Assembly (NCBI GenBank): GCA_945482995.1
Contig: CALYRM010000003.1
Coordinates: 10,150 to 74,149, forward strand
Reading direction: 5' to 3'
DNA length: 64,000 bases
Source: an uncultured Clostridia bacterium
GTDB lineage: Bacteria > Bacillota > Clostridia > Christensenellales > CAG-1252
The position numbers were made by a program, and so were the translations under genes. The notes under the pieces were generated by a model. That model did not search any database and was not told where the DNA came from. It was given only the letters and a program-made list of their open reading frames with translations. Shown in pieces: positions 9,538-43,770 of this stretch; within the stretch, counting starts at the first letter, position 1, and each line of letters begins with the position of its first letter.

Positions 9538-9564
9538 GTACTGTAGTTAATATAACCACAGTAC
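9538..9564 (-). terminator. Possible terminator downstream of the Flg_new lipoprotein gene
   Basis: 7-bp stem gtactgt/acagtac followed on the minus strand by a T-run (A-run 9532-9537 on plus). Confidence 0.4.
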
Positions 9565-9666
9565 CATAAATCAAAAATTCAAAACCTCGCTATTAAAGCA
9601 AATTTCATCCCGAATGGCTTTCATCTGTTCTTCGGAATAGAGTTCAGTGTAGGATAGCGAACGCTA

Positions 9667-10767: not shown

Positions 10768-10769
10768 AT

Positions 10770-14860: not shown

Positions 14861-14862
14861 TA

Positions 14863-15684: not shown

Positions 15685-15699
15685 TTTTTCTCCTAAATA

Positions 15700-16030
15700 T
15701 TGTCATCCCAAGCCATCCATATTGTCATTCTGTGCCATATATGTCATTCTGTGCCATATATGTCATTCTGTGCCATATAAAATGTCATCCTGAGCGAAGC
15801 GTAGCGTAGTCGTGAGGATCTCATCCACTTTGTCATCCTCAAGCGTTGCGTAGCGTAGTCGTGAGGATCTCATCCGCATCGTCATTCTGAGTCATCCATA
15901 TTGTCATCCTGAGCGGAGTGCAACGAAGTCGAAGAATCTCATCCTTGTTCCGTCATGTCGACCGAAGTGGAGACATCTCTATCAATGCACTGCCTCTTTG
16001 CGAAGCATACGTACAGCCTTTATCCCAACT
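15700..16030. repeat. Intergenic mosaic repeat array (at least 8 units), including a 3 x 19-bp tandem at 15723-15779
   Basis: tgtcattctgtgccatata x3, then gtcatcctgagcgaagcgtagcgtagtcgtgaggatctcatcc, a second similar unit, gtcatcctgagcggagtgcaacgaagtcgaagaatctcatcc, cgtcatgtcgaccgaagtggagacatctct, and ctctttgcgaagcatacgtacag. Confidence 0.9.
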
Positions 16031-16147
16031 GAACGTTTTGCAAAAATAAATACAATCACTGCACCATACCAATCACTCCGCCCATAATTAGTAAAGCGAG
16101 TCCATTATTCATTGCTTCGTTATAATAATGCTCGAAGTGACGATTGG

Positions 16148-17443
16148 TTATTCAATAATAGCGTTTTTCTTTCTATTAATAAACCAAATGTGAGAAATGT
16201 TTTCTCTTTGGAAACACTTGTATTTGGAATGACATTCCGGACAATAAAACTTGTCTTCGTTTTCCTCAACAGTTGCTTTGCAGACGGGGCAGAAAATAGT
16301 ATACATATCGTGTGAAACGTCAACTAGCGTAAGTTTGCTGTCAAGCCATTTTGCGATAAGTTGTCTTTCTGATAGCGTCGAAACAAGTTCTTTGTTAGTC
16401 GTTAGGCTTTCACCGTCCGTCAAACTCCAAAGAGTTAAAACGTCAAAATCTTCGGCGGCTCTGTATTCTAATGGAATTTCATCAATATCGTCTCTATTGA
16501 TAGATGAAGAAATCATTAAAATATGCTTTGCAATCATTTCCGTTTTGCTTAAATTCACTTCAAGCGCAAAAGCACAAACGCCTGCTATTTGTGTAAGCGT
16601 AACATCAAAGTTGACGGATTTTAAAATCCACTTTTTATTAGTTGTTGCGTCGCCATCCACAACGAGCGTGAAACCACGGCTAACGAATTCTTTAAGGATA
16701 ATCGTCAAGTAATACGAACTTAACTCCTCTTTAACATCTTCGATATTGTTGTATAACAAGTTTTTAGTATAAAAGGTGTAGCATTGCTTATATAGATTAT
16801 CGTGAATTAAAATATTCGTCTTTTCTATATGTCTGCTAATAGGGGACGTTTTGGAAATAGTGCGATAGAAGCGAGTGTTCTTGATAAAGTTGATTTTTTT
16901 CAATAGCATTTTCGCCTTTTTCATAGTCTTGATAAGCGTCTTGTCAGCGTCAACCAAGCTATTGTTTGCGATAATCGGCAACATTGCCAAATATAAATCT
17001 ACGTACTGTTTAAGTTCACCCTCTAAGATATTGATAAGTAGGCAGATAAACTTGTTTTCGTAAATGGCTAACTCGTCTACATTTTGGTGATAATACACCT
17101 TTTCTGGCACCATTTCAAGTCCTCTGCTTTTCCAAAAACCGGGTTCCTTTAGCGAACGGGTAAAGTCCTCGTTAGAAAGTTGTTTGACAAGCTCGATTCG
17201 AGAAACGATTTCTTCACGACGACTTGCGATATGCGGATGCTCTACTATTGACAATATGACGTTGATAACTTTCTGAATATCGCACAAAAAACTAAAATCA
17301 TGCTCTCTGCACTTTGCTTGTAGACTAATATCGGGCATATCCTCGATATGCTCAAAGAAGTCTACGGCAGTAGAATGTTGTTTGCCGTAAGAGTGAATTT
17401 GCTTTACATGGTCAATCAGAAAGTTTTGTTCAATCGTTCTCAT
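16148..17443 (-). CDS. Partner of the McrB-like ATPase (McrC-position protein), C-terminal zinc ribbon, function unknown
   Basis: 431 aa. TAATG overlap with the upstream ATPase gene. IYENKFICLLINILEGE segment is reminiscent of McrC/DUF2357 N-domains. The C terminus has CPVC-x14-CPEC. I could not find a convincing PD-(D/E)xK motif by eye. Confidence 0.5.
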   Translation of the reverse strand: MRTIEQNFLIDHVKQIHSYGKQHSTAVDFFEHIEDMPDISLQAKCREHDFSFLCDIQKVINVILSIVEHPHIASRREEIVSRIELVKQLSNEDFTRSLKEPGFWKSRGLEMVPEKVYYHQNVDELAIYENKFICLLINILEGELKQYVDLYLAMLPIIANNSLVDADKTLIKTMKKAKMLLKKINFIKNTRFYRTISKTSPISRHIEKTNILIHDNLYKQCYTFYTKNLLYNNIEDVKEELSSYYLTIILKEFVSRGFTLVVDGDATTNKKWILKSVNFDVTLTQIAGVCAFALEVNLSKTEMIAKHILMISSSINRDDIDEIPLEYRAAEDFDVLTLWSLTDGESLTTNKELVSTLSERQLIAKWLDSKLTLVDVSHDMYTIFCPVCKATVEENEDKFYCPECHSKYKCFQRENISHIWFINRKKNAIIE

Positions 17444-19266
17444 TAGAGTGCCTTAATAAGCTTGTTAATAATCTTTTTGCTGTGAGCCATAACGTCCTTG
17501 CCGTATGTCTTATCCAATAAAGCCAAAGTATCTTTAAGAGCGGGCTTGACATAATCTTCAAATCTACCCTCGAGCTTAGCGAAAAGCTTACGGCAGAGCA
17601 TCAAGTCAAGCGCGGTTTCCTTAGTTCCGCCACAAGCGACGAATACAGGAACTATATTTTTGATTTGGTTCAAGATACGGTTACCGACAGTGAGTGAGAA
17701 TGTTTCATAAACATAATCCAAAATGGAAGATAGCTTATTCATATCCTCGCTGTTCATACAGTTGTCGGTGTTCTTTAATGCTTCACTGTACAAAGCGCGC
17801 AAACCGCTACCGGACAAGTTGATGGGGCTAACGTCCTCTTCAACCTCGAACGGCTCGTTGTATTCGTCGAAGTCAATTGTGATGGCACGGTCATAAACCT
17901 TATCAGTAATTGTAAATGTGGAATCGTCCTTGTTTGCCGTTCCAACGAAATAGCTATTTTCGGGGATATTGATATATCCGTCAACAAGTTTCAAAGGTGG
18001 CAAGAAGTCGTTAGGCAAACTTACAATCTTTATTCTCCACTCGGGAACAGGGTATTCCAAGACTGACAATAGGTCAGCGAAGTAATACTCGACTCTCGAA
18101 ATGTTCATTTCATCGAGAACGTAAATGTTGATTTCGTCGCTGTTGTAGTTGGCTTCATAGAGAGATGCCAAGAACTCTGTTTCGGAATAAACCTTTGAAA
18201 ATTCGTTGAAGAATCCCAAGATATTTGATTTATCACGCCAAGTTGCTTGTACGGGCATGAACAAAACCTTACCGTTTACAAAGTGCGCGAAGTAACGAGG
18301 TAGTGAGCTCTTACCTGTACCCGACAAGCCCTCTAAGATTTCGAAGTGTGAAGCTGCAAAACCGCTGACGAAGAATCTAATTGTATCGATATCATAATAC
18401 AAATGTTCTTTCTTGCTTAGGTATTGTCTGAATTGTAAACATAATTGATCGAGTGAAATATCGTCGCTAACTAATGGTTTAGCGTCAAAGGCTTCAAATT
18501 TAACGTCTATTTTGCTAAGCTCGGGAAATACCTTTTCTCTCTCTTCTAAACCGGTTGAGCGAGCAATAACTTCTCCTGTGCCGTCACTGAGAGCACCGCC
18601 GACGCCTGCAACTCCGCCTTGAATGTTAGCGTTGTTGTTTTGAGTGTTACTGTTTACGTTAGCGTTTTCGTCACTGCCGAAACTTGAAGCAACGTCCATA
18701 TCTCTTATATCGTCGTCATCAAATACAGGCTCGTCCTCTTTGTTGAAAAACTTAAAAGGTTTGCCGACTTTTACGAAGTTTACAACCAACATTACAACCG
18801 AGCCAATTGCTGCAAAACCGATTACGTATACCAATAAAGCAATACCCAAGGTTTGTCCGACAAATGTTAAAACTCTTACAATGTTTTCACCGTTCAATGG
18901 CTTTTGGATGACGATGCCCAAACCCCATGATAGAAGAATACAGCCAAGAGCAATAGCGACATAAATCCCAATCATTTTGAGTGAGAAGGGCTTTTTGCCT
19001 GCAATTGAAGCACTACGCCTTGCATATGTGAATGCTAATGCGAAAATAAAGAAATAAATTGCAACAAGCATTAAGCAAATATAACCGCCAATCTTAGCTT
19101 CGATGGGTTGCATATTTAGCCCATTTGCGAGCATATTGATTATATTTTTCTCGGGGAAAATTGTGTGGGCAGCGTCAACACAGCACCCCACATACATTGC
19201 AACAAATGAAAAGATTGCAATTAGAGCCAAAAAAATCAAATTCTTTCTTGTAAATACCGTAAACAT
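17443..19266 (-). CDS. McrB-family AAA+ GTPase with an N-terminal four-helix transmembrane domain
   Basis: 607 aa. Residues ~1-170 form four hydrophobic helices, followed by an Asp/Asn-rich linker. Walker A GLSGTGKS. Walker B plus McrB signature YVLDEMNISRVEYYFADLLSVLE. VGTANKDDS (NKxD-like). Strong RBS aaggag. Confidence 0.75.
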   Translation of the reverse strand: MFTVFTRKNLIFLALIAIFSFVAMYVGCCVDAAHTIFPEKNIINMLANGLNMQPIEAKIGGYICLMLVAIYFFIFALAFTYARRSASIAGKKPFSLKMIGIYVAIALGCILLSWGLGIVIQKPLNGENIVRVLTFVGQTLGIALLVYVIGFAAIGSVVMLVVNFVKVGKPFKFFNKEDEPVFDDDDIRDMDVASSFGSDENANVNSNTQNNNANIQGGVAGVGGALSDGTGEVIARSTGLEEREKVFPELSKIDVKFEAFDAKPLVSDDISLDQLCLQFRQYLSKKEHLYYDIDTIRFFVSGFAASHFEILEGLSGTGKSSLPRYFAHFVNGKVLFMPVQATWRDKSNILGFFNEFSKVYSETEFLASLYEANYNSDEINIYVLDEMNISRVEYYFADLLSVLEYPVPEWRIKIVSLPNDFLPPLKLVDGYINIPENSYFVGTANKDDSTFTITDKVYDRAITIDFDEYNEPFEVEEDVSPINLSGSGLRALYSEALKNTDNCMNSEDMNKLSSILDYVYETFSLTVGNRILNQIKNIVPVFVACGGTKETALDLMLCRKLFAKLEGRFEDYVKPALKDTLALLDKTYGKDVMAHSKKIINKLIKAL

Positions 19267-19295
19267 TATATTTTCTCCTTATTCAAGAGTTTTTT

Positions 19296-19324
19296 GTTAT
19301 ATTAATTGTCATTTTGACTGGCAA
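19296..19324 (-). promoter_or_regulatory. Sigma-A type promoter TTGCCA-17-TATAAC for the McrB-like operon
   Basis: Reverse complement reads TTGCCA gtcaaaatgacaattaa TATAAC, about 30 nt upstream of the ATG at 19266. Confidence 0.55.
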
Positions 19325-19371
19325 TTTTGAGCCATACCGATGTCACTCTTCGACTACGCCTAAGGATGACA

Positions 19372-20322
19372 TTATATGTTTTCGTCCGTGTTATCCTTTT
19401 TATTTTCTTCGCTTTTCAAGTTCTTGCTAACGTCAACAGAATCTATATGCTGTTTATCAGCATTGTTATAGAGTGCCGTCAATTCGTCGTCGGAGAAGGA
19501 TAATATATTATTTTCGTCTAGGGAAAGCATAGTTAATAGCTTTTCCAAACGGGATTGTCTAAGTTGATATGTTTTATTAAGTGTTATATCCAATATTATC
19601 ATACAAGCAATTAGGGCAATTATAGTAACTATTCCTAGTGGGGATTGTACGAATAATATTATTGCGCCGATAAAGGGAATGTATTTTCCCGTGTATTTAC
19701 CTACTACGTCCTCGGGCGTGGCCTTGTATGAGTCTTCCATATTATTTGAGTCGCCTCGCGTTACAAAACGTGTATACGTTTCGGTTTTTTCGATACGAAT
19801 AATACGGTGAATGATATTGCTACCTTGTGGGTTTTTATATACGATTACATCGTATTGTTTGAGTGTTGTGGGATCTACGTCTTCGATAACAATAAGTGCG
19901 TAGGTGGGGAATTGATTGTTTAGGTTGTTTTCTATTAAATAATCATTGCTCGGATGTTTTTCGCTCATAGAGCCTGATGCAACGACAATTACGCTTTTAT
20001 TGCCAAGTTTCAACCAGCCACATTTGTCAGCTATTGCTAATCCTAAGCATGCCGCGACAACGATAATACCGATTGTAGAAAATATTCTTTTTACAATTTT
20101 TAAGGTTTTTGTTTTCTTCTTTGCTTCGGGTTTGCTTTCCTCTTTAAAGCTTTTTAAAAGCTCCAAATCGTATTCACCATCATCTATATTGTTTTTTGCA
20201 CCCTTCCGATAACGATAAAAAAGGAAGGCGAACAATATAATCAAACCCGCCATAATTACAGAAAGTATCATGATTCCCAAAAGCTGTCGTTTGCTTAGGG
20301 CTAAAAGCAAAGAATTAATCAA
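19372..20322 (-). CDS. Signal peptidase I, archaeal/ER type (SipW-like, S26B), with extra N- and C-terminal segments
   Basis: 316 aa. Catalytic Ser box VVASGSMS, His box NIIHRIIRI, and TRGDSNNMEDS box, in the same order as B. subtilis SipW. C-terminal TM as in SipW, plus a second N-terminal TM and a ~75-aa acidic tail. Confidence 0.8.
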   Translation of the reverse strand: MINSLLLALSKRQLLGIMILSVIMAGLIILFAFLFYRYRKGAKNNIDDGEYDLELLKSFKEESKPEAKKKTKTLKIVKRIFSTIGIIVVAACLGLAIADKCGWLKLGNKSVIVVASGSMSEKHPSNDYLIENNLNNQFPTYALIVIEDVDPTTLKQYDVIVYKNPQGSNIIHRIIRIEKTETYTRFVTRGDSNNMEDSYKATPEDVVGKYTGKYIPFIGAIILFVQSPLGIVTIIALIACMIILDITLNKTYQLRQSRLEKLLTMLSLDENNILSFSDDELTALYNNADKQHIDSVDVSKNLKSEENKKDNTDENI

Positions 20323-20496
20323 AACCCAATCCTACCTTTATTATATATCGTCATCAATGTTCCGTCACTAGACAATAGAATTATCATTCAGACTATAAGA
20401 ATTCCATCCTTGGGATAGTCGAAGGATATCCTCTATATATAAATATATAATCCATATATATAACGTGTTGTGCCATAACAGGGTGTATTGAACGTT

Positions 20497-20522
20497 GGAT
20501 TAAGTGCGAAAGCACTTAATCC
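20497..20522. other. Perfect 11-bp hairpin with GAAA loop and no U-tract, between the 350-aa gene and the peptidase gene
   Basis: ggattaagtgc-gaaa-gcacttaatcc. Smaller hairpins nearby (cgtct-gaa-agacg, atccac-gtaa-gtggat). Confidence 0.6.
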
Positions 20523-20618
20523 TCGGTCCATAACTCGTCTGAAAGACGAATTTTATTGTGTTAGCGTCATCCACGTAAGTGGATTTCAGCTCTCCTTTGG
20601 AGCAGTTTTCTTTCTCTA

Positions 20619-21671
20619 CTACTTAGGTTGTGCTGTGATTACGATAGTATACTTTGGAACTGTAATACTAGCCTCAGCTTTTTCAAGAGCATCGTTTAAG
20701 TTATCGATTTTTTCTGCCTTAGTGTTACCTGCAATGTTTGATAAGGTTTCTAAAGTGCTAAGCTTAATATCACTAGCCTTAACACTACCGCTTGTAACCA
20801 AAGGAGTGCTGGATTCGCCGAATGTATAGCCATCCAAAACGGCACCTGAATTAACGAAGTTTACAAGACGGAGCAATAATTCGGCTTCGGGTAATGTTAA
20901 ACCAGTCACTTCGTAAGACTCTGCACTGTATACAGTGGTATCACGAGAGTCCAATGTTCTGCCTGGGTTGCCAAATCCGAAAGCTTGTCCCCAACCAAAT
21001 CTAACTTCGCCATCGAATACATATGTACTGCCACTGAGTTTGTAGGTGAAGCCCTTATCTGTTATGCCTGTGGAGTCAAGAGTTGTTTCTGTCCCAATAG
21101 TAATCTTTGCTGGCGCAGTTTTGTTTTCTGTGTCGATAACGTAAGTATTTTCCGTGCCTGCTTGCTTCTTGATTGTAGGTAATGGGTTGCCGTCCATATC
21201 TACTGCATAAGACGGAAGTGTGATATAAGCTCTTTCAGAATCGTATGTCCAGTTTTCACTGTTCTTGAAGAAACCTGCAGCATTGATAACTGATTCCGGT
21301 AGTTTAACAGCGAATGTCAATTCACCAACTTTGTCGCCGTTTGAAACGTTTCCGCTAAAAGTGAAGGAAAGGTTTTCGGTGCGATTGTCTACAGTAGCTG
21401 TATGCATGATGTAACCTGTGTTGTCATTCTCTTGAGGAGCGAATACGATATCGTCAACTTTGAGTGAAGATTCTCCGACAAGGTTATCTAAATTGATTTT
21501 GATATCCGCATTGCTTACGGTAACAACGTCAACGTTGCCTTGTTCTTGAACGGTTGAACCGCTTGAAATCATCCAGGCAGCAAAACCTGTTGCAACGAGA
21601 GCGATACAAACGAATATCACTACACCAAACGTAATGGCTTTTCTGCTGAAATTTGAACGTGTTGTTTTCAT
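20619..21671 (-). CDS. Secreted beta-rich protein with SipW-cognate-like signal (GFA-AW junction), putative fibre/accessory subunit
   Basis: 350 aa. N terminus ...FVCIALVATGFAAWMISSGS. Shares C-terminal motifs with the 241-aa neighbour (FGWGQAFGFGNP versus FAWGEKGNP; KYTIVI versus KYQIHL). Confidence 0.6.
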   Translation of the reverse strand: MKTTRSNFSRKAITFGVVIFVCIALVATGFAAWMISSGSTVQEQGNVDVVTVSNADIKINLDNLVGESSLKVDDIVFAPQENDNTGYIMHTATVDNRTENLSFTFSGNVSNGDKVGELTFAVKLPESVINAAGFFKNSENWTYDSERAYITLPSYAVDMDGNPLPTIKKQAGTENTYVIDTENKTAPAKITIGTETTLDSTGITDKGFTYKLSGSTYVFDGEVRFGWGQAFGFGNPGRTLDSRDTTVYSAESYEVTGLTLPEAELLLRLVNFVNSGAVLDGYTFGESSTPLVTSGSVKASDIKLSTLETLSNIAGNTKAEKIDNLNDALEKAEASITVPKYTIVITAQPK

Positions 21672-21720
21672 AGTTTGTTCTCCTTGAGTCTATTATATTT
21701 GTTCAGAGCGTTAATTGTTC

Positions 21721-22446
21721 CTAAGCACCGGTAGATGGAGCAACAGTCTCTAAGTGGATTTGATATTTACCGTCGTTTAATTTACGAACAGCGGAAAGCA
21801 TTGCGCTTGCAGCGGTTGCATTATCTTTTGAATAAGGAAGTCCGTTAAAATATGTGTACGGATTGCCCTTTTCACCCCAAGCAAACGTTATTGTAATCTC
21901 TGCAGTGTAGGTATTGCTTGCAGCAGCTGTAAAATTTTCAGCTGTCAACTCAACGAATAGGTTGTCTGCGCCCCATGCTTCTGCTTCTGCTAGATTTTTA
22001 GTTGTCCCGCCAACTTTCAAAGTTGGGTTTGCTAAATATTTAGCTGTAACAGCACTATTGAAAGCACCTGCTTCAACACCCTTGTATGAAACAGCAACCT
22101 TAAGTTTGTTTCCATTTAGCATTTGTTCTGCTGTAGTTCCGCTAACTGTTGGAGTTAAGGTAACTGTGATTTTTGCTGTCAAGGCATCGGGGGGAACGTC
22201 GGTTGCGGACAACCAACCATAGTTTGTTCCTGCGGGAGCAGCAGCTTTACCGAAAGTGATATTACCACTTGCAGCAGCGGTTGCTGTGTATGTGTAATCT
22301 TTAACTTCGTCTGCTACGAAGCTGCCACCATCAACAGTTTCGTTTACGGGGTTGACGATTAACCAAGCTGCGAAACCAATACCAACTACTGAAGCCAATA
22401 CTAGAATGGCGATGATTGGGATTAAAATTTTCTTAGTTTTTGTCAT
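21721..22446 (-). CDS. Secreted Ala/Thr/Gly-rich protein with SipW-cognate-like signal, putative major fibre subunit
   Basis: 241 aa counted from the ATG at 22446, which has a perfect RBS (aaggagataaaaaaaATG). The ORF-track start at 22512 lacks an RBS. N terminus MTKTKKILIPIIAILVLASVVGIGFAAWLIVNP. Confidence 0.6.
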   Translation of the reverse strand: MTKTKKILIPIIAILVLASVVGIGFAAWLIVNPVNETVDGGSFVADEVKDYTYTATAAASGNITFGKAAAPAGTNYGWLSATDVPPDALTAKITVTLTPTVSGTTAEQMLNGNKLKVAVSYKGVEAGAFNSAVTAKYLANPTLKVGGTTKNLAEAEAWGADNLFVELTAENFTAAASNTYTAEITITFAWGEKGNPYTYFNGLPYSKDNATAASAMLSAVRKLNDGKYQIHLETVAPSTGA

Positions 22447-22560
22447 TTTTTTTATCTCCTTTAAAATTTTGTTTTTGATTTTTTGTTTTTGACGATTTAT
22501 ATCTACACTCATAAGCCTAAAGGCTTACGAAGTGATTAACGAAATATGGCTACAATTTAT

Positions 22561-22644
22561 ACATAATAAAAGGGCGCAAAATCCATGGAATAGCAAATAG
22601 GGCATACAAAAATGCCCATAGCAGGTTTTGGATGTGCGCTCTTT
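22561..22644 (-). terminator. Compound stem-loop with U-tract (terminator/attenuator) between the membrane-protein gene and the 241-aa gene
   Basis: Outer stem 22568-22584 / 22630-44 (aaaagggcgcaaaatcc / ggatgtgcgctcttt). Inner hairpin gggcat-acaaaa-atgccc. On the minus strand it is followed by TTTTATTAT. Confidence 0.45.
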
Positions 22645-22650
22645 GTAAAA

Positions 22651-23148
22651 CTAGATTCTTAATTGACCTAAGGTTAGGTATGTAAAGGAATATGCGGTCG
22701 TAGTTTTGTTATTAAATGTCGGTTGTGTTTCGTGTTTGCAAACACCGGAAATGAAGAAATACAAGAATAAGAAAACTAAAACATGTGATGTAACTACGAA
22801 CATCGCACAAGTAATTGCAGAACCCAAAATCGCATATACGCCCAATAACTGCAAGGAGTACATAACCGAGTGAGTTCCGAAAATAATTTGTAGCATAGAA
22901 ACAATGGTAGAAATAGTTTCATTGCTAAGCACTGAATACAAGAAAGCTCTAAGCGCGGAGAAATTGGTAACAGCAAGAACAACGAGCAAAAGAACTGCCA
23001 AGAATGCGCCTAAGAACGGGCGAACCTTATTAGCAATAATCTTTCTGAATTCTTTGTTTGTTCCTGTGGCTTTTACCGAACGTACAATATATTTTGTCGC
23101 AATATACGTTAGTACGAAGGCAAATATACCTACCAAGTATTTGAGCAT
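22651..23148 (-). CDS. Small polytopic membrane protein, unknown function (first gene of the minus-strand fibre operon)
   Basis: 165 aa with 4-5 hydrophobic helices. No recognisable motif. Confidence 0.5.
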   Translation of the reverse strand: MLKYLVGIFAFVLTYIATKYIVRSVKATGTNKEFRKIIANKVRPFLGAFLAVLLLVVLAVTNFSALRAFLYSVLSNETISTIVSMLQIIFGTHSVMYSLQLLGVYAILGSAITCAMFVVTSHVLVFLFLYFFISGVCKHETQPTFNNKTTTAYSFTYLTLGQLRI

Positions 23149-23465
23149 AGTTTCTCCTTAAATTGCTATTATAAGCTATTGTCATATTAACACATAAAAT
23201 GTCAAAATGCAAGCAATATTCTTAATTTTTTTTATTTCCACTATTTCCCAAATCAAATTTGTTGCAAAAATGTGTCCTCGTTTAAATATTTTATGCTAAA
23301 ATTCAAGCAAAGTTTTAAAGTTATCGTTATATTATATGCGTGCTTTAAATTTAATATTTTAATTAAAATTTAATTTTAAACTTTTGAAAAGCAATAAAAA
23401 TTATTAAAATCTTTTAGTAAAGTACTTAAAATTTGTAAAAAACAACTATTTTTTTAGTATTTTAC

Positions 23466-23494
23466 TTGACAATTTTTATAAGAAATTATATCAT
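23466..23494 (+). promoter_or_regulatory. Sigma-A type promoter TTGACA-17-TATCAT
   Basis: Read directly from the very AT-rich divergent region 23149-23555, about 60 nt upstream of the 233-aa gene (RBS acaggagaaaaaATG). Confidence 0.6.
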
Positions 23495-23555
23495 ATTATT
23501 AATATGGGCGAGTCTACGCTTATGAAGATTTAGACGGGCTAAAACAGGAGAAAAA

Positions 23556-24257
23556 ATGGATAGAAAACTTAACGGAAAGCTGAAAAATTTATATCGAAAA
23601 ATGATTTTCGGTAAGGTGCTAATTGTACTATATATTGTACTTCCAATGCTGTTGGTTGCTACGGGCTTTTCTGCTTGGGTGATTAATACTCCTTCGTTCT
23701 CGGCTGACTTTTACGGCACAACCACTTCGAGTGCGCTTATAGATACTAGTGCATTATTAGAGGTTAAGAAGTTTGAACCCATTGAAGAATTATATTATAC
23801 AGGTCCGGTATCCGGGAATAATCTTCAAAAGCAACTTAATATAGATACGATAATAAATATAAATCCTAATAAAGTAGCGACCATAGCCCGTGAAAGCTCA
23901 AATACAATGTATTTGAAACTTACCTTAATGCTTAAGTCAAACAAGAATAATTCAGATATCTTCACACGTTTTAGCTCTAGTTTTAGCGTTACTAATACTG
24001 TCAATGGTGTAAACATCGAAGAAGTTCCTGCAACGCTAGAAAAGCCTGCAAGTACAAGTTCAACTTACAGTGTAATATACAAACTAATCTTTACTAACGG
24101 AACAAGCTTACCTGATGATTTTAGTTTGACAATTAGTCCGTCGTTTGTTCTATCACCTGAGGGTTACGCAGCGTTTTACGACTATTGTGTCAAAGGCGAC
24201 ATAGCCGAGGATCCATTCGTGCTTGACTTGCGTCTCTCCGAAAGTGCGAATATATAG
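23556..24257 (+). CDS. Secreted protein with SipW-cognate-like signal (GFS-AW junction)
   Basis: 233 aa. N terminus ...VLPMLLVATGFSAWVINTPSF. Ser/Thr/Asn-rich, beta-type composition. Confidence 0.55.
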   Translation: MDRKLNGKLKNLYRKMIFGKVLIVLYIVLPMLLVATGFSAWVINTPSFSADFYGTTTSSALIDTSALLEVKKFEPIEELYYTGPVSGNNLQKQLNIDTIININPNKVATIARESSNTMYLKLTLMLKSNKNNSDIFTRFSSSFSVTNTVNGVNIEEVPATLEKPASTSSTYSVIYKLIFTNGTSLPDDFSLTISPSFVLSPEGYAAFYDYCVKGDIAEDPFVLDLRLSESANI

Positions 24258-24277
24258 GTTGACCAACATCGTACCAA

Positions 24278-24810
24278 TTGTCATCCTGAGCGGAGCGTAG
24301 CGTAGTCGTGAGGATCTCATCCTTGTTAATCGTCGTGTCGAGCGCAGTTGAAGTTAATCGTCATCCTGAGCGGAGTGTAACGGAGTCGTGAGGATCTAAT
24401 TGACAGCACCGCTGTCATCCTGGAAGAGTTGTTCGAGGGACCTCACTACAAGCACCGACTCTTTGCGAAGCATACGGATAGACATTCATGCCATATTGTC
24501 ATTCTGAGCGCAGTCGAAGAATCTCATCCGCATTGACATCCTTGCCCCGATAGACGCCATCTCTACATAAAAGGTCATCCTCAAGCGGAGTGTAACGGAG
24601 TCATGAGGATATAATCCTTGTTCCGTCATGTCGACCGTAGTGGAGACATCTCTAAAACGGGGTAATGAACATTCTTGAGAACAGAACTCAAGCGTTCCAT
24701 ATAAATCACGCAGTCCACAACGAATTGCAATCGTTAGGTCGCAATTCAATTCACGGAGTGCTGCTTCACGAGAATTCATGAAACCAACGGTTTCAATTCA
24801 TTCTGAAAAT
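24278..24810 (+). repeat. Intergenic mosaic repeat array ending in a ~190-nt composite element (24614-24810)
   Basis: Units ttgtcatcctgagcggagcgtagcgtagtcgtgaggatctcatcc, cgtcgtgtcgagcgcagttgaag, cgtcatcctgagcggagtgtaacggagtcgtgaggatct, ctctttgcgaagcatacggatag, ttgtcattctgagcgcagtcgaagaatctcatcc, and others. The composite element is about 95 percent identical to 48797-48987. Confidence 0.9.
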
Positions 24811-24843
24811 CAATAAATATTGATTATATGTAAGAGAAAAAGT

Positions 24844-27800
24844 ATGTATAGAGTAGATAATAAAAATAAAAAAGAATATCGTAGAGTGACTACAAAAGCG
24901 AAGTATTTTGTAGTTCTTTCGCTATTCCTTTTGTTACTACTCGTAGTAGTGGGTTCTTCTGCTTGGAATCTCCATTTGAGAGTAATCGGATTTGTCGGTG
25001 ACAATCCCGAAATTACCAACCCCGTAACCATTGTAAGCGGAACCAACGCCAACAACCTATTGCTCAAATATGTTGACTACAGCGAATTTACCGAAACAAT
25101 AGAGTATAACGGAAAAATCTATTATACATGTACATACAACGGCAACACTCATACACCGAAAATTAAAAATATAGAAGATGACGCTCGTGATTTTGATTTG
25201 ACAAAATTCAAATACGAATACACTTGCCTTTATTTGCCTAATAATACGACAAAAGGCGAATGGGTCGCCGTTAATTCTCAAACTACTATAACCGCACCAA
25301 AAGAGAGTGGTTGGTATAAAGTAGTTATTACATACTCAGATTTAGAATCGGATTTCAATTATTCTTCATATATCGGATCAGCTACACTCTACTTTGCAAT
25401 TCAACCAAAAGAAATAGAGGTTAGCGTTTCACGTTCCGAAAGCGTTTACGGTGACGCAACCAGAATTAACGAAATCGAACAGACCGTAGCTTCGGGTGTA
25501 TTGTGTGGTGCTGATACCGTTGATTCACTTAATTCTACTTTTAGCTTGCAAAGTAGGGATAATTCCCTTTCGCAAGCAAGCGAAGAAACAAACCTTTATG
25601 CAGGTGAATATAACATTGTTGGTACCGATAATTCTAGAAATTACGCTATAACCTTTAAACCAAAAATCGTAGAAGATGGTACTTACGCTTTATATACAAT
25701 CACCAAGCGACCTATTACGGTTCAGATACTTGATCAAATAAGCGTTTATGGTGATTTACCTTTTGACTTTGCTAATTTAGATAACTTGAATAATAATAAA
25801 GTTGCCAAGATTAGCGTTAATACCTTGGCTTATTCTGACAAAGTTAGCGACGTAATAAGTGTTTCATGCGGATTAACTCTATTGGAAAATGAAAAAACAA
25901 TTACCTCTAATGTAGGTGAATATCCTATTGTTGGTATTAATATCAACGACAACTACGAGGTTACGTTTGCAAATGGTTCTTGGACTGATTCTGCAGAATG
26001 TGGTACTTATACAATAACAAAAGCACCTCTTAACATGACGGCAACATCATTTAAACTCACATATGGTGCTGAAATGCCCACTTATTCCGTTACATATGAA
26101 GGCTTTAAAAATGGCGAAACCAAGAATGTTATTGTCGGCAATCCGTCATTTACATGCACTTATGTGCCAAATAAGCAAAACGGTTCGGTAAGGACGTATA
26201 GCATTACACCGAGCTTGGACGAACAAACTAACTATGAAATTAATCCGATAGACGGTACTTTAACCGTTAGCAAAAAAGCGCTAACGATTACTCTTGACAG
26301 TAAATCAACCCATTATGGCGAAAAGGCTCCTGCATTTACTTGTACGCCAACAGGCTTTGTTTATAGCGAAAGTTTTACAACATATAAGTCTGATTTCAGC
26401 TTAGAGAATTATGTAACCGATGATTATACAGTCGGCGACTCTATTGGCGAATATAATATAGCTTGGTCAATATTGGAGAGTGAACTCGAATACATTTTAA
26501 CAAATTATGACTGCACTCTTGTAGCAAATAAATTGACTGTAAATGCTCGTCCTATATCAGTAACAATAGATGATAAGTCGAGCGTGTACGGTGCTAATCC
26601 CGTTTCTCTTACTGCAACCGTAGCCGTTACTCAAGGCTATACATTGACGGGAAATCCGATTTATGGTACAGATAATCCATATACGTTATCAACTTCCGTT
26701 ACCAATACTATCGGTTTTGGTACATATCCTATTGTAGGTACAAGAGAGAATAGCAATTACGATATTACCTTTGTCGGCACATTCGAAAAAAACAAAGGAA
26801 CTTATACCGTAACTAAAAAAGCAATTTCAATAGTATGGTCTAATACTTCGTTTACCTATGACGGCAGCTCTCACAAACCAGTGGCAACAGCAGGGGGGTT
26901 AGTGAATGGCGATGATTGCACGATAAACGTTTCGGGTGAAAAAACAAATGCAGGAAGCTATATCGCAACTGCAGAAAATGTATCAAATTCAAATTACATC
27001 TTGCCGACTACAAATTTGACCGCAAGCTTTACAATTGCTCCAAAGGACGTAACGATTACTTGGACGAATATTTTGTTTACTTATGATGGAAAATATCATA
27101 AACCTACTGCAACGGCAGGGGGCTTAGTAGACGGCGATGATTGCACGATAAACGTTTCGGGTGAAAAAACAAATGCAGGAAGCTATATCGCAACTGCAGA
27201 AAATGTATCAAATTCAAATTACATCTTGCCGACTACAAATTTGACCGCAAGCTTTACAATTGCTCCAAAGGACGTAACGATTACTTGGACGAATATTTTG
27301 TTTACTTATGATGGAAAATATCATAAACCTACTGCAACGGCAGGGGGCTTAGTAGACGGCGATGATTGCACGATAAACGTTTCGGGTGAACAAATAAACG
27401 CAAATACCGATTCAAACCCAACGTATACCGCTACCGCTTCTATTGTCAAGGGCGAAGTAATCGACAATAACTACAAAATTATAGAAAGAGGGACTCAAAA
27501 TTTCACGATTGAAAAGGCACCTTTGACAATTACAGCCGAAGACAAAACAACTTTGGTTGGTGTCGAACCTCCCGAATTTACCGTAAAGTATGATGGCTTT
27601 GTGAATGGCGAAACGCAATCGGTATTAGGTGGAGAATTGACGTTTGCTGCGATTGATTCTTCTATTACTGCTACCGCCGGCGAATATGTTGACGTTATTG
27701 TTCCAATGGGACTTACCTCTGATAACTATGATATATCATTTGTAAGCGGTAAACTTACAGTAGTTAATGGATTCGAAAAACCTACGATCGGTAACAACAG

Positions 27801-30800
27801 CTTTGTTTACAACGGAACAACCATAGAATATTTACCTGATGGATTTGATCCAATTAAAATGGCTATTTCGGGCAATTCCGCAACCGACGCAAACACATAT
27901 ACCGCTACGGTAACCCCTCTTAACGGTGCTGTTTGGGCTGATTACACTTCCACCGCTCTGACTTTTGAGTGGACTATCACTCAAGCTACTACGGTAATTA
28001 GCGGAAATCTTTCTATAGATAATTGGACTTATGGCGGTACGGCAAGTACCCCATCGGGCTTAAGCACAAACTTTGGCGACATTCAATATCAATATTCTTC
28101 GGAGCAAAACGGTACTTACTCGACTACACAGCCCTCTAATGCGGGTAACTATTATGTTAAAGGCGTCGTCGTCGGAAATGATAATTATACTTCCGCCGAG
28201 ACAGCGCCTGTAGCTTTCACGATTGAAAAGGCAATAATTGATAAGCCAACCGAAGGCAATAGTACGTTTAATTACGATGGTACCGAAAAAACTTATACTC
28301 CCGAAGGCTTTAATCCAAATACTATGGTTATAACCAATGTAAATCAAACAAATTCAGGTAATTATAGATCGGTAGTAACTCCACAAGATAATTATAAATG
28401 GGCGGATGATGCGGAAGTTGCCTTTATTTGGCATATTACTAAAAAAGAAATTGATATAACCAACAAAACAATCGAGATAGTTTATTCTACAGATAAACGT
28501 ACATGGCAAAGTATTGAAGAATATATTCGAGCACAATTAGTAGTTTCCGATAAATGCGGAAGTGACGATGTATATGTTAATACAGGTAATTTGACAAACG
28601 GAATAATAACTTATACATATAATGGAAGTACTTATAGTGGAAAGGTTGAACAAAGCTATGGCTCAGATATGGGGCTTAATGACAGCTATTTAAAAAATCA
28701 ATTTGTAGGTAGCACATATATTGGTACATCACTGTCTTTGGGTGGTGTCGCTAAAAATAATTATTCGATTAAGGGCGATAGATATTACTTTAAGTATAAA
28801 ACAGCAAGTGTAGGTGGTACATATTATACAATAGAAGACGCAATTCACGACGGAACTACTAATACTATAACCTTCCCCGGTGATGCTTCTACTGCAACAT
28901 CATACGTTTTGACATGCTTCAGCAATATAGAATTGCCTAATGAAGAAACTCTTTCGTCAAATTCGACGCTAAACGCATTCTTCGCAAATTATAAGTCAAA
29001 ATCGCATGAAATTTCGGGAAGGACTTTGTTAGTTCCGTATGAAAATTCGGAAAATGTAATCAAAGGTGAAAAAAATCCATCAAATGTATCAAATGTAAAG
29101 CTCAACGTATATTCTGCTCTTATTATACCATCGGGAATCAGTATTACGTTTAAGAACAGTGCAAGTCTTAAAGTTGGTTCACATATTACCGCTCCGGAAA
29201 ACGGTTTTGCTACGCAAAACCCAACGCCAAACAATCAGTCCGGTATTAGAGAACACGGAGTTATTGTAAATGATGGCAAGCTAACTTTTGAAAGTGGTAC
29301 TTCGATATATTCTTATGGATATATAAAATCAAGTTCGATTACTAGCCAAGGCAGTATTATAGCTCAAAGCGGAGTTCAAGTAAGAGAATATATGTATATC
29401 CACTCATGGCCGGGCGGAACCGCTGCAAGTGCAATATATTCAAAAGTTTTTCCTACGAATGCTTGGTCTTTGCATAATATCTCGTGCACTATTCAGATAA
29501 ATGCAGGCGCTCAGTATTATGCATATGCCGCCGTAACAGCTTCAATTATTGGATATACTAAAGCGGAAGCTTTGGTTATAGGAAAACAAGGCGATACAAA
29601 TTGTATTTTTATCCCCGATTATGATAAAGCAAATTACAATCAAAATAGTTACATAATCAAATCGACAAAGCCTGCTGCAAGTTGGAGTAGTACTTCGGCT
29701 GAATATAAGCAATTGTATAATATAGTCGGCGCTAATTATTTAAGTGGTCAAAAAGATATAATTGAAATTTACGGTGATTATACAGATAGAACTTTATTGG
29801 TGGACGTTGGCGCTAAGTTAAAAACATCAACGGAAATATCTGCACCTCTTGGATATATGGATGTGACTATCGATAATGGCTCAACCTTGAATTTGATCAA
29901 TTCCGATTATCTTTTCCTTCCCGGAACCAAGTTATTTGTTGAGAAAGGTGCAAACTTAATTATCAACAATGAAGTTGACGTTGTATTCCTTGATTATAAT
30001 ACGCTAAAGTCACATGGTGGTAATGGCTTTAAGTTCGATACTTTCTGCAAAGATAAGGTAGATGCTTATGCCGTAATAAATGGCAATATAGAAATCTATG
30101 GACGTATTGGTGGAAAAATAACATCGACGGAAGAAGGGGCAAGTATGGTTTTCCATACAATACAAGTGGGTGCTAATTACAATCTAATGAAGTCCAGTGA
30201 TGAACCCCGTTATATTGTTGGAGAAAAATATAGGGCTACAGCTAATGTTCTTGGTGTAGATAACACAATTCTTACTTCAGGAAGATATTGTACAGCCACA
30301 ATAGACAATGCAATAACTTGGATGGCTACAACTGGTACAATTGTTTTTGATCAAAACTATGGTGATAATAGCGTGATTAAATCAATGGAAAATATAGATA
30401 TGCCATATACGCTAAATGTTGCTGATTATCCTTCAAATCCTACAAGAGCTTTATATAGCCTTGATGTAGATGGAAATGGTAATACGCAGTGGTATTTAGA
30501 CAAAGAGTGTTCTCAACCTATTGCACCCGAAACTATTTTATACGCAGGCACCACGCTTTATGCAAAGTGGATACCAATAAGCTATAAGGTCAACTATCAA
30601 TATGTTTATGGAACAAATGTTACTGAGGCTGACGTTGGGTTGGATAATCCTATAGATGATTTATATATTACTGCTGAAAGTGGTATTATTATTAATAGTC
30701 TATTAAACATCGATGATATAGATAAGACGGTTGAAGGCTATTCCTTAACAGGTTGGTATGTAGACAGTGATTGTCGAACTAATGTTGATAATGCTTTTGA

Positions 30801-32553
30801 ATTGTTATCGGCATCTTCTTCGTTGACTGAAAGTACCATAACCGTTTATGGTAAATGGGATGTATATGTACCGTCATTTAAGGTTGAGTATTCAACAGGC
30901 GTAGGTGTAGCTCCCGCCGCTATGGATTACAGTACGGATATTGTCTTAATCGAATCTCAAGAAGGTTGGCAACCTTCTAAAAACGGCTCTTCTTTTGATA
31001 GGGATACAGCTGTAGATTATTATTTTGACGGTTGGTATATAGACGAAAACTGTACTACGAGTTTTACCAGTTTTTCGGGTGTAAATATGAATGAAACACA
31101 GCACCTCTACGCAAAATGGACTAAAAAGAACATACTTAATATTTGCATATCCGATGGTAGTGTTTATGATACGAGACGCTACAAGCCGGGAACCACATTC
31201 ACCATTCCTGCGCTTCCACCTGTAATAGTGCCTAAAGAAGGACAATACATTTATTGGACATTGAATGGCGCTACTGATAGTTCACAAGGAGAGTTGGTAG
31301 CAGATTCTCAATGTACACTTGTTGATAGTACCAAAGTTGTATTACACATTTTGGATAGATATGAAATAACGACAAGCTTAACTAATTCTAGTGTAATCAT
31401 ATATTACTCCGGTCACTATAGCATTAACGGAAGTGATGTCGAATATAGCGAAACCTATAGCATAACTTCAAAGACAAACCAAGATCCTTGCTTCTACGCA
31501 TATAGCGACGGACAAATAACAAATATTGATGTAACATGGAAACAGACGGACTCTCGAACTTTAACTGTTAATGGTGCAAACTATGATGATAACTCAAATG
31601 CCACTATAAAAATATCAGCCAAAACTACAATAGTTGCATCATCTTCAGGTGTTTGTTTAGCAGAAGGTACGCTGATTACACTTGCCGATGGTACACAAAA
31701 GAAAGTGGAGGATTTGAATTATGACGACGTTTTACTTGCATTCAACCACGTAACAGGACAATATGAGGCAAGTCCGCTATTGGTTAATTTGCATGCTCAA
31801 GAATCAAGCCGTTTGTGCAGAATTATTTATCTTGATTTCTCAGATGGAACAAGAATCGGTATAATTGGAGAACATTCATTCTTTGATATAGACGAAAATA
31901 AATATGTATATATTGATGAAGATACAGTTAAGAATCATATTGGGCATAGATTTGTCAAGGTTAAACAAATTGACGGAAGGTTTGTATCCGAAGAAGTTGT
32001 TCTTAATGAATACAATATAGTTGAAAAGACTATGAGAGTGTTTTCACCAGTAAGTGGTCAAATTAATGTTGTTACTGAGGGCTTGCTAAGCTTTACCGAA
32101 GTTCTTACAGCAGAAGGACCTACTCACGGTGTAATCAACATTTTCGAGTTTGGTGAAAACTTGAAGTATGATGAAGTTAAGATGCAGGAAGACATCGATA
32201 AGTATGGTCTGTATACATACGATGACTATAAAGCATACTTGACATATGAAGAGTTTATATCATTCCCGTGGGCATATTTCAAAGTTTCAGTAGGAAAAGG
32301 ACGTCTAACATGGGATGATATTCTTTGGAACATTCAATATATCCATAACGATAGAATGGAACAAATGGGAATGACTCAAGAAAATCAAACAACAAGTGGT
32401 GAAGTCGTTAATTCGGAACAAAACAACACACCTCAGAATAGCGACACTACAAATGAAAACCCATTTGAAACCGTTGCACTTCCACCGCCGACAACTTCCA
32501 CCTCGTCAGGTAGTGGCGGTGATAGCGACAACTCAAACGACGGCGAATCGTAA
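24844..32553 (+). CDS. Giant surface adhesin-like protein: SipW-cognate-like signal, multiple MBG domains, beta-helix-like core, Listeria-Bacteroides repeats, C-terminal Hint (intein-like) domain
   Basis: About 2569 aa from the ATG at 24844 (the ORF track starts at TTG 24820). N terminus ...LLLLLVVVGSSAWNLHL. Repeated xYGxxxP...AGEYxI...NYxIxxxxGxLTIxK modules (MBG-like). GWY...LYAKW modules. CLAEGTLITLADG...GEHSFF...IHN Hint block at residues 2279-2510 (track numbering). Confidence 0.85.
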   Translation: MYRVDNKNKKEYRRVTTKAKYFVVLSLFLLLLLVVVGSSAWNLHLRVIGFVGDNPEITNPVTIVSGTNANNLLLKYVDYSEFTETIEYNGKIYYTCTYNGNTHTPKIKNIEDDARDFDLTKFKYEYTCLYLPNNTTKGEWVAVNSQTTITAPKESGWYKVVITYSDLESDFNYSSYIGSATLYFAIQPKEIEVSVSRSESVYGDATRINEIEQTVASGVLCGADTVDSLNSTFSLQSRDNSLSQASEETNLYAGEYNIVGTDNSRNYAITFKPKIVEDGTYALYTITKRPITVQILDQISVYGDLPFDFANLDNLNNNKVAKISVNTLAYSDKVSDVISVSCGLTLLENEKTITSNVGEYPIVGININDNYEVTFANGSWTDSAECGTYTITKAPLNMTATSFKLTYGAEMPTYSVTYEGFKNGETKNVIVGNPSFTCTYVPNKQNGSVRTYSITPSLDEQTNYEINPIDGTLTVSKKALTITLDSKSTHYGEKAPAFTCTPTGFVYSESFTTYKSDFSLENYVTDDYTVGDSIGEYNIAWSILESELEYILTNYDCTLVANKLTVNARPISVTIDDKSSVYGANPVSLTATVAVTQGYTLTGNPIYGTDNPYTLSTSVTNTIGFGTYPIVGTRENSNYDITFVGTFEKNKGTYTVTKKAISIVWSNTSFTYDGSSHKPVATAGGLVNGDDCTINVSGEKTNAGSYIATAENVSNSNYILPTTNLTASFTIAPKDVTITWTNILFTYDGKYHKPTATAGGLVDGDDCTINVSGEKTNAGSYIATAENVSNSNYILPTTNLTASFTIAPKDVTITWTNILFTYDGKYHKPTATAGGLVDGDDCTINVSGEQINANTDSNPTYTATASIVKGEVIDNNYKIIERGTQNFTIEKAPLTITAEDKTTLVGVEPPEFTVKYDGFVNGETQSVLGGELTFAAIDSSITATAGEYVDVIVPMGLTSDNYDISFVSGKLTVVNGFEKPTIGNNSFVYNGTTIEYLPDGFDPIKMAISGNSATDANTYTATVTPLNGAVWADYTSTALTFEWTITQATTVISGNLSIDNWTYGGTASTPSGLSTNFGDIQYQYSSEQNGTYSTTQPSNAGNYYVKGVVVGNDNYTSAETAPVAFTIEKAIIDKPTEGNSTFNYDGTEKTYTPEGFNPNTMVITNVNQTNSGNYRSVVTPQDNYKWADDAEVAFIWHITKKEIDITNKTIEIVYSTDKRTWQSIEEYIRAQLVVSDKCGSDDVYVNTGNLTNGIITYTYNGSTYSGKVEQSYGSDMGLNDSYLKNQFVGSTYIGTSLSLGGVAKNNYSIKGDRYYFKYKTASVGGTYYTIEDAIHDGTTNTITFPGDASTATSYVLTCFSNIELPNEETLSSNSTLNAFFANYKSKSHEISGRTLLVPYENSENVIKGEKNPSNVSNVKLNVYSALIIPSGISITFKNSASLKVGSHITAPENGFATQNPTPNNQSGIREHGVIVNDGKLTFESGTSIYSYGYIKSSSITSQGSIIAQSGVQVREYMYIHSWPGGTAASAIYSKVFPTNAWSLHNISCTIQINAGAQYYAYAAVTASIIGYTKAEALVIGKQGDTNCIFIPDYDKANYNQNSYIIKSTKPAASWSSTSAEYKQLYNIVGANYLSGQKDIIEIYGDYTDRTLLVDVGAKLKTSTEISAPLGYMDVTIDNGSTLNLINSDYLFLPGTKLFVEKGANLIINNEVDVVFLDYNTLKSHGGNGFKFDTFCKDKVDAYAVINGNIEIYGRIGGKITSTEEGASMVFHTIQVGANYNLMKSSDEPRYIVGEKYRATANVLGVDNTILTSGRYCTATIDNAITWMATTGTIVFDQNYGDNSVIKSMENIDMPYTLNVADYPSNPTRALYSLDVDGNGNTQWYLDKECSQPIAPETILYAGTTLYAKWIPISYKVNYQYVYGTNVTEADVGLDNPIDDLYITAESGIIINSLLNIDDIDKTVEGYSLTGWYVDSDCRTNVDNAFELLSASSSLTESTITVYGKWDVYVPSFKVEYSTGVGVAPAAMDYSTDIVLIESQEGWQPSKNGSSFDRDTAVDYYFDGWYIDENCTTSFTSFSGVNMNETQHLYAKWTKKNILNICISDGSVYDTRRYKPGTTFTIPALPPVIVPKEGQYIYWTLNGATDSSQGELVADSQCTLVDSTKVVLHILDRYEITTSLTNSSVIIYYSGHYSINGSDVEYSETYSITSKTNQDPCFYAYSDGQITNIDVTWKQTDSRTLTVNGANYDDNSNATIKISAKTTIVASSSGVCLAEGTLITLADGTQKKVEDLNYDDVLLAFNHVTGQYEASPLLVNLHAQESSRLCRIIYLDFSDGTRIGIIGEHSFFDIDENKYVYIDEDTVKNHIGHRFVKVKQIDGRFVSEEVVLNEYNIVEKTMRVFSPVSGQINVVTEGLLSFTEVLTAEGPTHGVINIFEFGENLKYDEVKMQEDIDKYGLYTYDDYKAYLTYEEFISFPWAYFKVSVGKGRLTWDDILWNIQYIHNDRMEQMGMTQENQTTSGEVVNSEQNNTPQNSDTTNENPFETVALPPPTTSTSSGSGGDSDNSNDGES
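26911..27390 (+). repeat. Perfect 225-bp (75-aa) tandem duplication inside the giant gene
   Basis: 26941-27165 is identical to 27166-27390. The 30 nt before the first copy also match the unit end, so 26911-27165 equals 27136-27390. Confidence 0.95.
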
Positions 32554-43652: not shown

Positions 43653-43770
43653 ATTAGCCTCCAAATACAATAAAAGTGCAAAGCGCAATTTCGGATTCTG
43701 TGATTATTTGGTGTACTTCTTTTTTTAATGTCCGTTTTTTTTGAACATTTATTGAATAATCTCATTTGCT

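Follow-up and report, generated by a model that had tools for sequence, protein, structure and literature searches.

A candidate cell-surface assembly system of uncultured Clostridia that pairs an archaeal-type signal peptidase with its own set of putative substrates

Signal peptidases of the endoplasmic reticulum (ER)/archaeal type are encoded beside their substrates in tapA-sipW-tasA of Bacillus subtilis and in sipW-tasA-calY of Bacillus cereus. SipW-dependent proteins that are matrix- or pilus-like also stand beside an archaeal-type peptidase in sipW-bsaA of Clostridium perfringens (TIGR04090) and among actinobacterial 'alternate-type signal peptide' proteins (TIGR04089). The first mature residues of TasA are its donor strand, with F29, I32 and F39 buried (PMC9674648). 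Aromatic residues at P2' and a Trp at P2 hinder the peptidase LepB, and TasA depends on SipW (PMC10269814). In this report, we analysed a 64,000-nucleotide stretch of an uncultured Clostridia bacterium assigned to Christensenellales, CAG-1252 (GCA_945482995.1, contig CALYRM010000003.1, positions 10,150 to 74,149 of the forward strand; hereafter the window, along which all coordinates are counted). It carries a signal peptidase of the same general type clustered with four putative substrates (A, B, C and a giant adhesin), and this cassette has the look of a cell-surface assembly system that is new and without annotation, TasA/SipW-like in logic only.

The peptidase and its putative substrates

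A first-pass annotation, made from the letters of the window, had proposed a SipW-type peptidase and four neighbouring proteins sharing a G-x-[AS]-A-W junction at the end of their signal helix. ORF (open reading frame) listing and translation recovered all five ORFs in place, and our translations agree with the four junction strings letter for letter. The assignment of the 316-amino-acid (aa) ORF (19372-20322, minus strand) to the archaeal/ER type of signal peptidase I is borne out by TIGR02228, which it matches at 82.3 bits (cut-off 51.85), while the model for bacterial-type enzymes, TIGR02227, gives 21 bits and stays under its cut-off of 47. The protein has Ser and His boxes and a GDxN..D box instead of a Ser/Lys dyad: SGSMS stands upstream, and in an alignment with human SEC11A/C its IIHRII pairs with IVHRV and its RGDSNNMED with KGDNN..D. 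With the Bacillus SipW equivalog NF046067, it scores 70.2 bits, under the cut-off of 190, and it is longer than SipW, having an additional N-terminal transmembrane (TM) helix and a C-terminal tail of ~70 aa. Because it passes TIGR02228 and the comparison with SEC11 and fails NF046067, the peptidase is, judged from these signatures, an ER/archaeal-type enzyme and not an orthologue of Bacillus SipW.

The four putative substrates end their N-terminal helix with closely similar strings. A (241 aa; 21721-22446, minus strand; junction VGIGFA↓AWLIV, the arrow marking the proposed scissile bond) is an Ala/Thr-rich secreted protein of an unannotated family. Its longest ORF (21721-22512, minus strand) would encode 263 aa, and the start at ATG 22446, which is preceded by the Shine-Dalgarno sequence AAAGGAGA and is also the one used by homologues, gives 241 aa. 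Its ribosome-binding site, contended to be the best, does not set this gene apart, since comparable AGGAG sites are present in B, in C, in the AAA and ABC genes of the operon described below and in a small neighbouring ORF, orf165. B (350 aa; 20619-21671, minus strand; ATGFA↓AWMIS) was related to A by hhalign and has an AlphaFold model of its own, and C (233 aa; 23556-24257, plus strand; ATGFS↓AWVIN) carries an N-terminal module common to A and B. The giant adhesin (24820-32553, plus strand; VVGSS↓AWNLH), a protein with MBG_2 and Flg_new repeats, has 2577 aa when counted from TTG 24820, although its start is likely to be ATG 24844.

The junction is specific to these proteins within the window. 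A scan of every six-frame ORF of 80 aa or more for G-x-[AST]-[AST]-W gives four occurrences, all in these four proteins and each time at the end of the N-terminal hydrophobic helix. Shuffling residues gives a mean of 0.59 occurrences, with 3 of 500 shuffles reaching four, and if only patterns preceded by a hydrophobic 15-mer are counted, the four observed cases compare with a shuffle mean of 0.01. We therefore rejected the idea that the junction is the general signal-peptidase site of this organism, the matches in the window being confined to the four cassette proteins. Two further exported products of the locus, an 832-aa protein and a lipoprotein, have N termini which, read by eye, lack the W junction.

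The likeness to TasA lies in the arrangement. As in the two Bacillus clusters, an ER/archaeal-type peptidase is encoded beside its candidate substrates, and both GGGTWA↓AFND of TasA and VGFA↓AWLI here have aromatic residues at P2 and P2' around A↓A and a small residue at P3. Here as in TasA/TapA, several substrates have common first mature residues, which in TasA/TapA form the donor strand. Unlike in tapA-sipW-tasA, the operon adds five invariant genes that include a membrane GTPase and an ABC exporter, and one of the substrates is an adhesin of more than 2500 aa.

No homology accompanies this likeness in the comparisons that we made. The first-pass annotation had suggested comparing the four N termini with TIGR04088, the model for SipW-cognate signals; none matched at E<=10, whereas a TasA control sequence (validated at 514 bits) scored 38 bits with that model (cut-off 19) and also matched NF046066. 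The proposed kinship with TasA, camelysin or TapA likewise found no support from NF046066 and Peptidase_M73, both negative for A, B and C. A direct hhalign comparison with TasA reached a non-significant probability of 24% over the signal region only, although it placed GFA↓AW in register with TWA↓AF. TIGR04088, TIGR04089, TIGR04090 and the TasA models matched neither the four full-length proteins nor their N termini taken separately, and no isopeptide-type domains were detected in the four proteins. With the archaeal filaments of the TasA superfamily, AbpA of bundling pili and CanA of cannulae, there is no sequence similarity, and CanA appeared only as a non-significant structural match of B (E 0.26, TM score 0.14-0.25). 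Two further classes of surface filament were considered and rejected. Type IV pilins do not fit, the motif being at the C-terminal end of the helix, with no Glu at +5 and no prepilin peptidase or PilB-type genes in the operon. Sortase-assembled pilins do not fit either, as neither the adhesin nor any of A, B and C ends in an LPxTG sorting signal.

The junction, the substrate folds and the giant adhesin

The junction is far better conserved than the proteins that carry it. A word-indexed search with A found only 18 relatives, and an exhaustive profile search with its family reached 869 representative clusters (clustered at 50% identity), of which 465 scored E<=1e-10. In 150 representative clusters no more than 50% identical to one another, mean column identity over the whole protein is 15%, as against a near-invariant junction: P3 is G in 100%, P2 is F in 96%, P1 is A in 98%, P1' is A or S in 94%, P2' is W in 100%, P3' is L, V, W or I, and P4' is I in 94%. 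The G-x-[AS]-A-W junction of the first-pass annotation is thus conserved in orthologues well outside this genome, with G and W invariant in the 869-cluster family. P1' may be A, S, G, N, T, M, D or Y. Small residues fixed at P3 and P1 beside a variable P1' are what marks a site for a type I signal peptidase. GFA↓AW satisfies the -3/-1 rule, and we infer that the helix is cleaved, most likely at G-F-A↓[A/S]-W. Since aromatic residues at P2 and P2' hinder LepB, there would be a rationale for a dedicated peptidase here. To our knowledge, the G-F-A-A-W junction is among the most sharply conserved signal-peptidase junctions.

The three smaller substrates are related to different extents. A is followed by a paralogue, as had been proposed: A and B align with an hhalign probability of 99.8% (E 1.4e-28) and share the signal, a β-domain and an F-x-W-G..NP motif, B having an extra C-terminal helical region. 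C aligns with A at an hhalign probability of 96.9% over 48 columns only, comprising the last part of the signal and ~25 mature residues, and the segment common to the two reads [A/S]-W-x-I..P..G-S-F..V.D. Because C shares only its N-terminal ~48 residues with A and B, the junction and the first ~25 mature residues behave, at the level of sequence, as a portable module placed on unrelated passenger domains. In some lineages (L048, L055, L081 and L082), two or three tandem A genes stand ahead of B; natural tandem A-A fusions were looked for and none was found, the long family members merely having insertions.

AlphaFold predicts for A, from a 130-sequence alignment, a β-sandwich with a long C-terminal helix (predicted local distance difference test, pLDDT, 88.3; predicted TM score, pTM, 0.79). 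The model is weak only at residues 21-40, the junction and mature N terminus (the latter residues 24-40), where pLDDT falls to 58-59, and its TM helix stops at residue 23, ahead of the motif. B was modelled at pLDDT 79.8. The suggestion of a TasA-like jellyroll did not find support, Foldseek giving no significant PDB match for either model and no TasA chain among the top 50 for A or B; against BFVD, the A model had no significant match. Matches of B to PapE, FimA and CanA (E 0.08-0.4, TM score at most 0.3) were set aside as too weak to count. Sequence searches gave the same picture: Pfam and NCBIfam had no matches on A, B and C, Pfam on 130 members of the A family returned scattered noise only, and the family profile had no match among PDB sequences. 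A thus represents an unannotated family of ~870 clusters with a confident fold but without a significant match in PDB or BFVD.

The giant adhesin was correctly described as an MBG/Flg_new protein: it contains seven MBG_2 repeats (1e-47) and one Flg_new repeat. Its orthologues in all clades have a W at +2 behind a small-x-small site, with junctions as different as GSS↓AW, GLS↓TW, GSA↓DW and AAG↓YW. Neither an LPxTG motif nor a C-terminal anchor was found in it. The Hint domain noticed earlier is matched, but below threshold (17 bits against a cut-off of 29.7), as is Intein_splicing at 16.6 bits. The module concerned spans residues ~2272-2460 (window ~31630-32200, plus strand), starts C-L-A-E-G-T, and lies close to the C terminus of a protein that has no wall anchor; it may represent an autoprocessing domain of the bacterial intein-like kind. 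Separately, residues ~700-850 (window ~26900-27400, plus strand) hold two adjacent, near-identical MBG repeats of ~75 aa (...TASFTIAPKDVTITWTNILFTYDGKYHKPTATAGGLVDGDDCTINVSGE...), which suggests a recent internal duplication.

Comparison of the window with a same-species contig (L003) shows where the cassette varies between strains. B, the peptidase, the AAA protein and its partner, the ABC ATPase, the permease, the 832-aa protein and orf165 are 99-100% identical, and C is 97% identical. A (9935-10735 in L003) is only 90.6% identical, and the adhesin (1144-7587 in L003) is a different allele of 2147 rather than 2577 aa, with 30-41% identity and an identical N-terminal junction. Such variation in A and the adhesin is what diversifying selection or allele exchange would be expected to produce in major subunits and tip adhesins that are exposed.

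The nine-gene operon

The peptidase and the four junction proteins had been presented as the unit, but what is conserved as a whole is a nine-gene operon (9667-22446, minus strand) that starts with A, B and the peptidase. The fourth gene (17443-19266, minus strand) encodes a membrane McrB-like AAA+ GTPase of 607 aa, in which four TM helices at the N terminus are combined with a cytoplasmic AAA_5 domain where Walker A GTGKS, DEMN and NKDD can be read, and which matches the PADLOC candidate family PDC-M26A at 2.7e-33. Its stop is overlapped by one base by the start of an McrC-like partner (431 aa; 16148-17443, minus strand) with a C-terminal zinc ribbon, recognised by Zn-ribbon matches. The orthologue of this partner in locus L013 carries PF09823 (DUF2357), the N-terminal domain of McrC. 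No PD-(D/E)xK nuclease motif was seen in the 431-aa partner in a by-eye reading made without a profile search. Like McrBC pairs (PADLOC PDC-M26), the two proteins thus combine an AAA_5 domain bearing an NKxD-type motif with DUF2357 on a partner orthologue. Unlike McrBC, the GTPase has four TM helices and the partner a zinc ribbon and no nuclease motif that we could see, and the pair is fixed within a surface-protein operon rather than lying in a defence island.

Four genes complete the operon on the same strand. An ABC-2/DrrA-type exporter ATPase (14863-15684; ABC_tran) matches DrrA at 2e-50 and GldA at 5e-46 and belongs to the DrrA/GldA/lantibiotic-protection type of exporter. It is followed by a 12-TM permease of 530 aa (13268-14860; PF09847, 12TM_1, on its orthologues), the 832-aa protein, which is N-terminally anchored or secreted and has no family match (10770-13268), and a 366-aa lipoprotein with an LLAGC lipobox and a Flg_new repeat (9667-10767). 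After this last gene, there is a terminator-like hairpin of 13 pairs with a T run (9537-9565, minus strand), which is a consensus match only.

Conservation of gene context was followed in 11 genome or assembly loci, from which the hidden Markov models for each gene were built, and in 80 metagenome loci, many of them from the human gut, which were found with a 12-sequence profile. The order A, B, peptidase, TM-AAA, partner, ABC ATPase, 12-TM permease, 832-aa protein is the same in 80 of 80 metagenome loci. Counting only loci with enough contig flank, B follows A in 62 of 63 and 55 of 56 encode the peptidase, which agrees with the earlier expectation that the junction proteins and the peptidase are co-conserved; the AAA gene (38/38), the partner (35/35), the ABC ATPase (33/33), the permease (32/32) and the gene for the 832-aa protein (30/30) are never missing. 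In L016 and L017, the loci long enough to include this position, the homologue of the 832-aa protein is followed by the Flg_new lipoprotein, and in L015-L017 the operon genes overlap stop to start, in the manner of a single operon. Median pairwise identity among loci falls from 73% for the ABC ATPase through 54% for the AAA protein and 43% for the peptidase to 32% for A.

The left flank is less constant. C, upstream and divergent, and the giant adhesin stand there in 25 of 37 loci, so that the adhesin, first taken for a fixed component, accompanies the operon together with C in about two thirds of loci only; in other clades, the left flank is occupied by a two-component system and a Lactamase_B gene. 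Because the flank differs between clades, the constancy of the core is not simply whole-genome synteny. We propose that the GTPase, its partner, the ABC exporter, the 832-aa protein and the lipoprotein are functionally coupled to surface assembly. Synteny is the sole link between these further genes and the substrates, and that synteny is absolute.

The named relatives are metagenome-assembled genomes (MAGs) called 'Clostridia bacterium', one Oscillospiraceae MAG and Candidatus Fimimonas, and the cassette appears to be confined to uncultured Clostridia. Candidatus Fimimonas, of the related lineages the one that has been described in the literature, corresponds to GTDB CAG-1435 in Christensenellales/CAG-314 and has genomes of 1.3-1.4 Mb (PMC8035907). 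NCBI taxonomy lists it under Myxococcaceae, as against Christensenellales CAG-314 (Clostridia) in its description. A literature search turned up no published description of this cassette. The published 'TANB77 pilin' cluster was considered as the same system and rejected, being Tad-type and unrelated.

Other features of the window are of more local interest. Between C and A lies orf165 (165 aa, four TM helices; 22651-23148, minus strand), a lineage-specific ORF with a good Shine-Dalgarno sequence that is 100% identical in L003 and L004, the two closest strains; no homologue was detected at this position in other clades, and L014 carries an unrelated 164-aa ORF there. A bacterial serpin (42399-43688, minus strand), a GH5 cellulase (8047-9288, minus strand) and an 890-aa TPR protein (5188-7860, minus strand) are encoded in the same window and have no apparent relation to the cassette. 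A tRNA search found no tRNA genes in the window.

Competing explanations and biological meaning

In the mechanism that we propose, the locus would encode a dedicated ER/archaeal-type peptidase and a private substrate set. A, B, C and the giant adhesin would be exported via Sec, and their junction would be poorly handled by a housekeeping LepB-type peptidase because of the aromatics at P2 and P2'. After cleavage, every mature protein would start x-W-hydrophobic-I, and this common peptide, which in A, B and C leads into the conserved G-S-F..V.D segment, would link the proteins into one cell-surface assembly, the joining mechanism most likely being β-strand complementation as in TasA/TapA. A would be the abundant, exposed and antigenically variable subunit and the candidate major one, B a conserved second subunit, and C and the giant adhesin exchangeable accessories. 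That cleavage at GFA↓[A/S]W frees an x-W-hydrophobic-I N terminus which then joins all four proteins by strand complementation is, on balance, probable, because it combines the analogy with TasA/TapA, the portable module, conservation that extends past the cleavage site, the disordered N terminus of the A model and the lack of an anchor in the adhesin. We infer that the N-terminal peptide mediates assembly and that a fibre is the product, and we consider the fibre mechanism plausible.

Several observations pull the other way. Neither by sequence nor by fold are the proteins related to TasA, camelysin, BsaA or any solved donor-strand pilin, and Foldseek against the PDB returned nothing at E<=1e-3 for the A and B models. 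A second site, [S/G/A]-V-G↓F, satisfies the -3/-1 rule as well, so that the cut may fall there instead. A self-assembling fibre of the TasA type needs no ATPases, so that the invariant GTPase and ABC genes go unexplained. The hydrophobic run including the motif, at ~25 residues, has the length of a membrane anchor, and the B model runs a single helix from residue 7 to 36 straight through the motif.

The last two of these points would suit an explanation in which the helices are never cleaved. A, B, C and the adhesin would then be type II membrane-anchored proteins. G-F-A-A-W-x-I, where the TM helix reaches its outer end, would be an interface motif recognised in the membrane by other operon products, the 12-TM permease or the TM domain of the GTPase, while the peptidase would serve only regulated release or another substrate. 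The uncharged run before the G has a median of 17 residues, which the motif extends to the anchor length given above, the conservation of F, W and I exceeds what a signal peptidase usually needs, and membrane proteins are invariably co-encoded. However, the presence of a dedicated signal peptidase two genes downstream in 55 of 56 loci, the restriction of P3 and P1 to small residues with a variable P1', which is how a cleavage site looks, and the end of the helix at residue 23 in the A model, before the motif, make uncleaved anchors unlikely. A further alternative is an energised filament or display machine of a new kind, in which subunits cut at the junction would pass to a membrane platform. 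Energy for A/B polymerisation or extrusion and for the mounting of the adhesin would come from the ABC exporter and/or from the GTPase, whose McrC-like partner would act as a plug, by a logic analogous to that of type IV filament systems and without homology to them. The invariant eight-gene order, with stops and starts overlapping, would be well explained, as would the membrane anchoring of the GTPase and a partner with a zinc ribbon and no visible PD-(D/E)xK, unlike a restriction enzyme; even with the very small genomes of this clade, as in Candidatus Fimimonas, the block is kept, and it takes up ~13 kb in the window. But none of the components has homology to an established pilus ATPase, platform or usher, the family that the GTPase matches, PDC-M26A, is a candidate defence family, and the ATPases are tied to the substrates by gene order alone, and we regard such a machine as distinctly unlikely.

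At the other extreme, the block might be a mosaic of unrelated modules (a peptidase with its surface proteins, an McrBC-like defence pair and an ABC exporter of drugs or peptides) that have been inherited vertically together within a single narrow clade. The junction would then reflect nothing but the preference of that peptidase, and each substrate would be secreted or attached to the wall on its own, with no assembly among them. All loci do come from related uncultured Clostridia, with ABC ATPases 65-100% identical, the PADLOC match of the GTPase and the DrrA/lantibiotic-protection type of the ABC ATPase are what such a patchwork would contain, and there is no fold evidence for polymerisation. 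We nevertheless hold this to be very improbable, since the left flank varies by clade around an eight-gene core that stays intact throughout, some lineages have translationally overlapping genes, and positions +2 to +5 and the G-S-F..V.D segment are conserved across non-homologous proteins, which points to a shared function after cleavage. In the most far-reaching version, the peptidase would create x-W-hydrophobic N termini on subunits for which no structural relative was detected, and the membrane GTPase, its nuclease-less McrC-like partner and the ABC exporter would drive or control the polymerisation of these subunits and the mounting of exchangeable adhesins, so that the operon would encode the machinery of an unrecognised Gram-positive surface organelle; this version is speculative and, in our estimate, rather unlikely.

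What is known here is the principle of a SipW-type peptidase with cognate substrates. What is new is the subunit family and its fold, the junction, the architecture of the peptidase, the presence of a giant exchangeable adhesin among the substrates and the unvarying association with an ABC exporter and with a membrane McrB-like GTPase and its partner. The junction makes the specificity of an ER-type bacterial signal peptidase directly testable, and the McrB/McrC-like pair is found in a context unlike defence. Were the organelle version to hold, an AAA+ GTPase family known from DNA restriction would have been recruited to envelope assembly, and if the substrates do form a fibre, SipW-type fibre assembly would reach a second, unrelated subunit fold. 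As regards the bacteria themselves, the cassette occurs commonly in gut metagenomes of humans and animals, and attachment, immune recognition and phage adsorption are likely to be determined by its strain-variable A protein and swappable adhesin.

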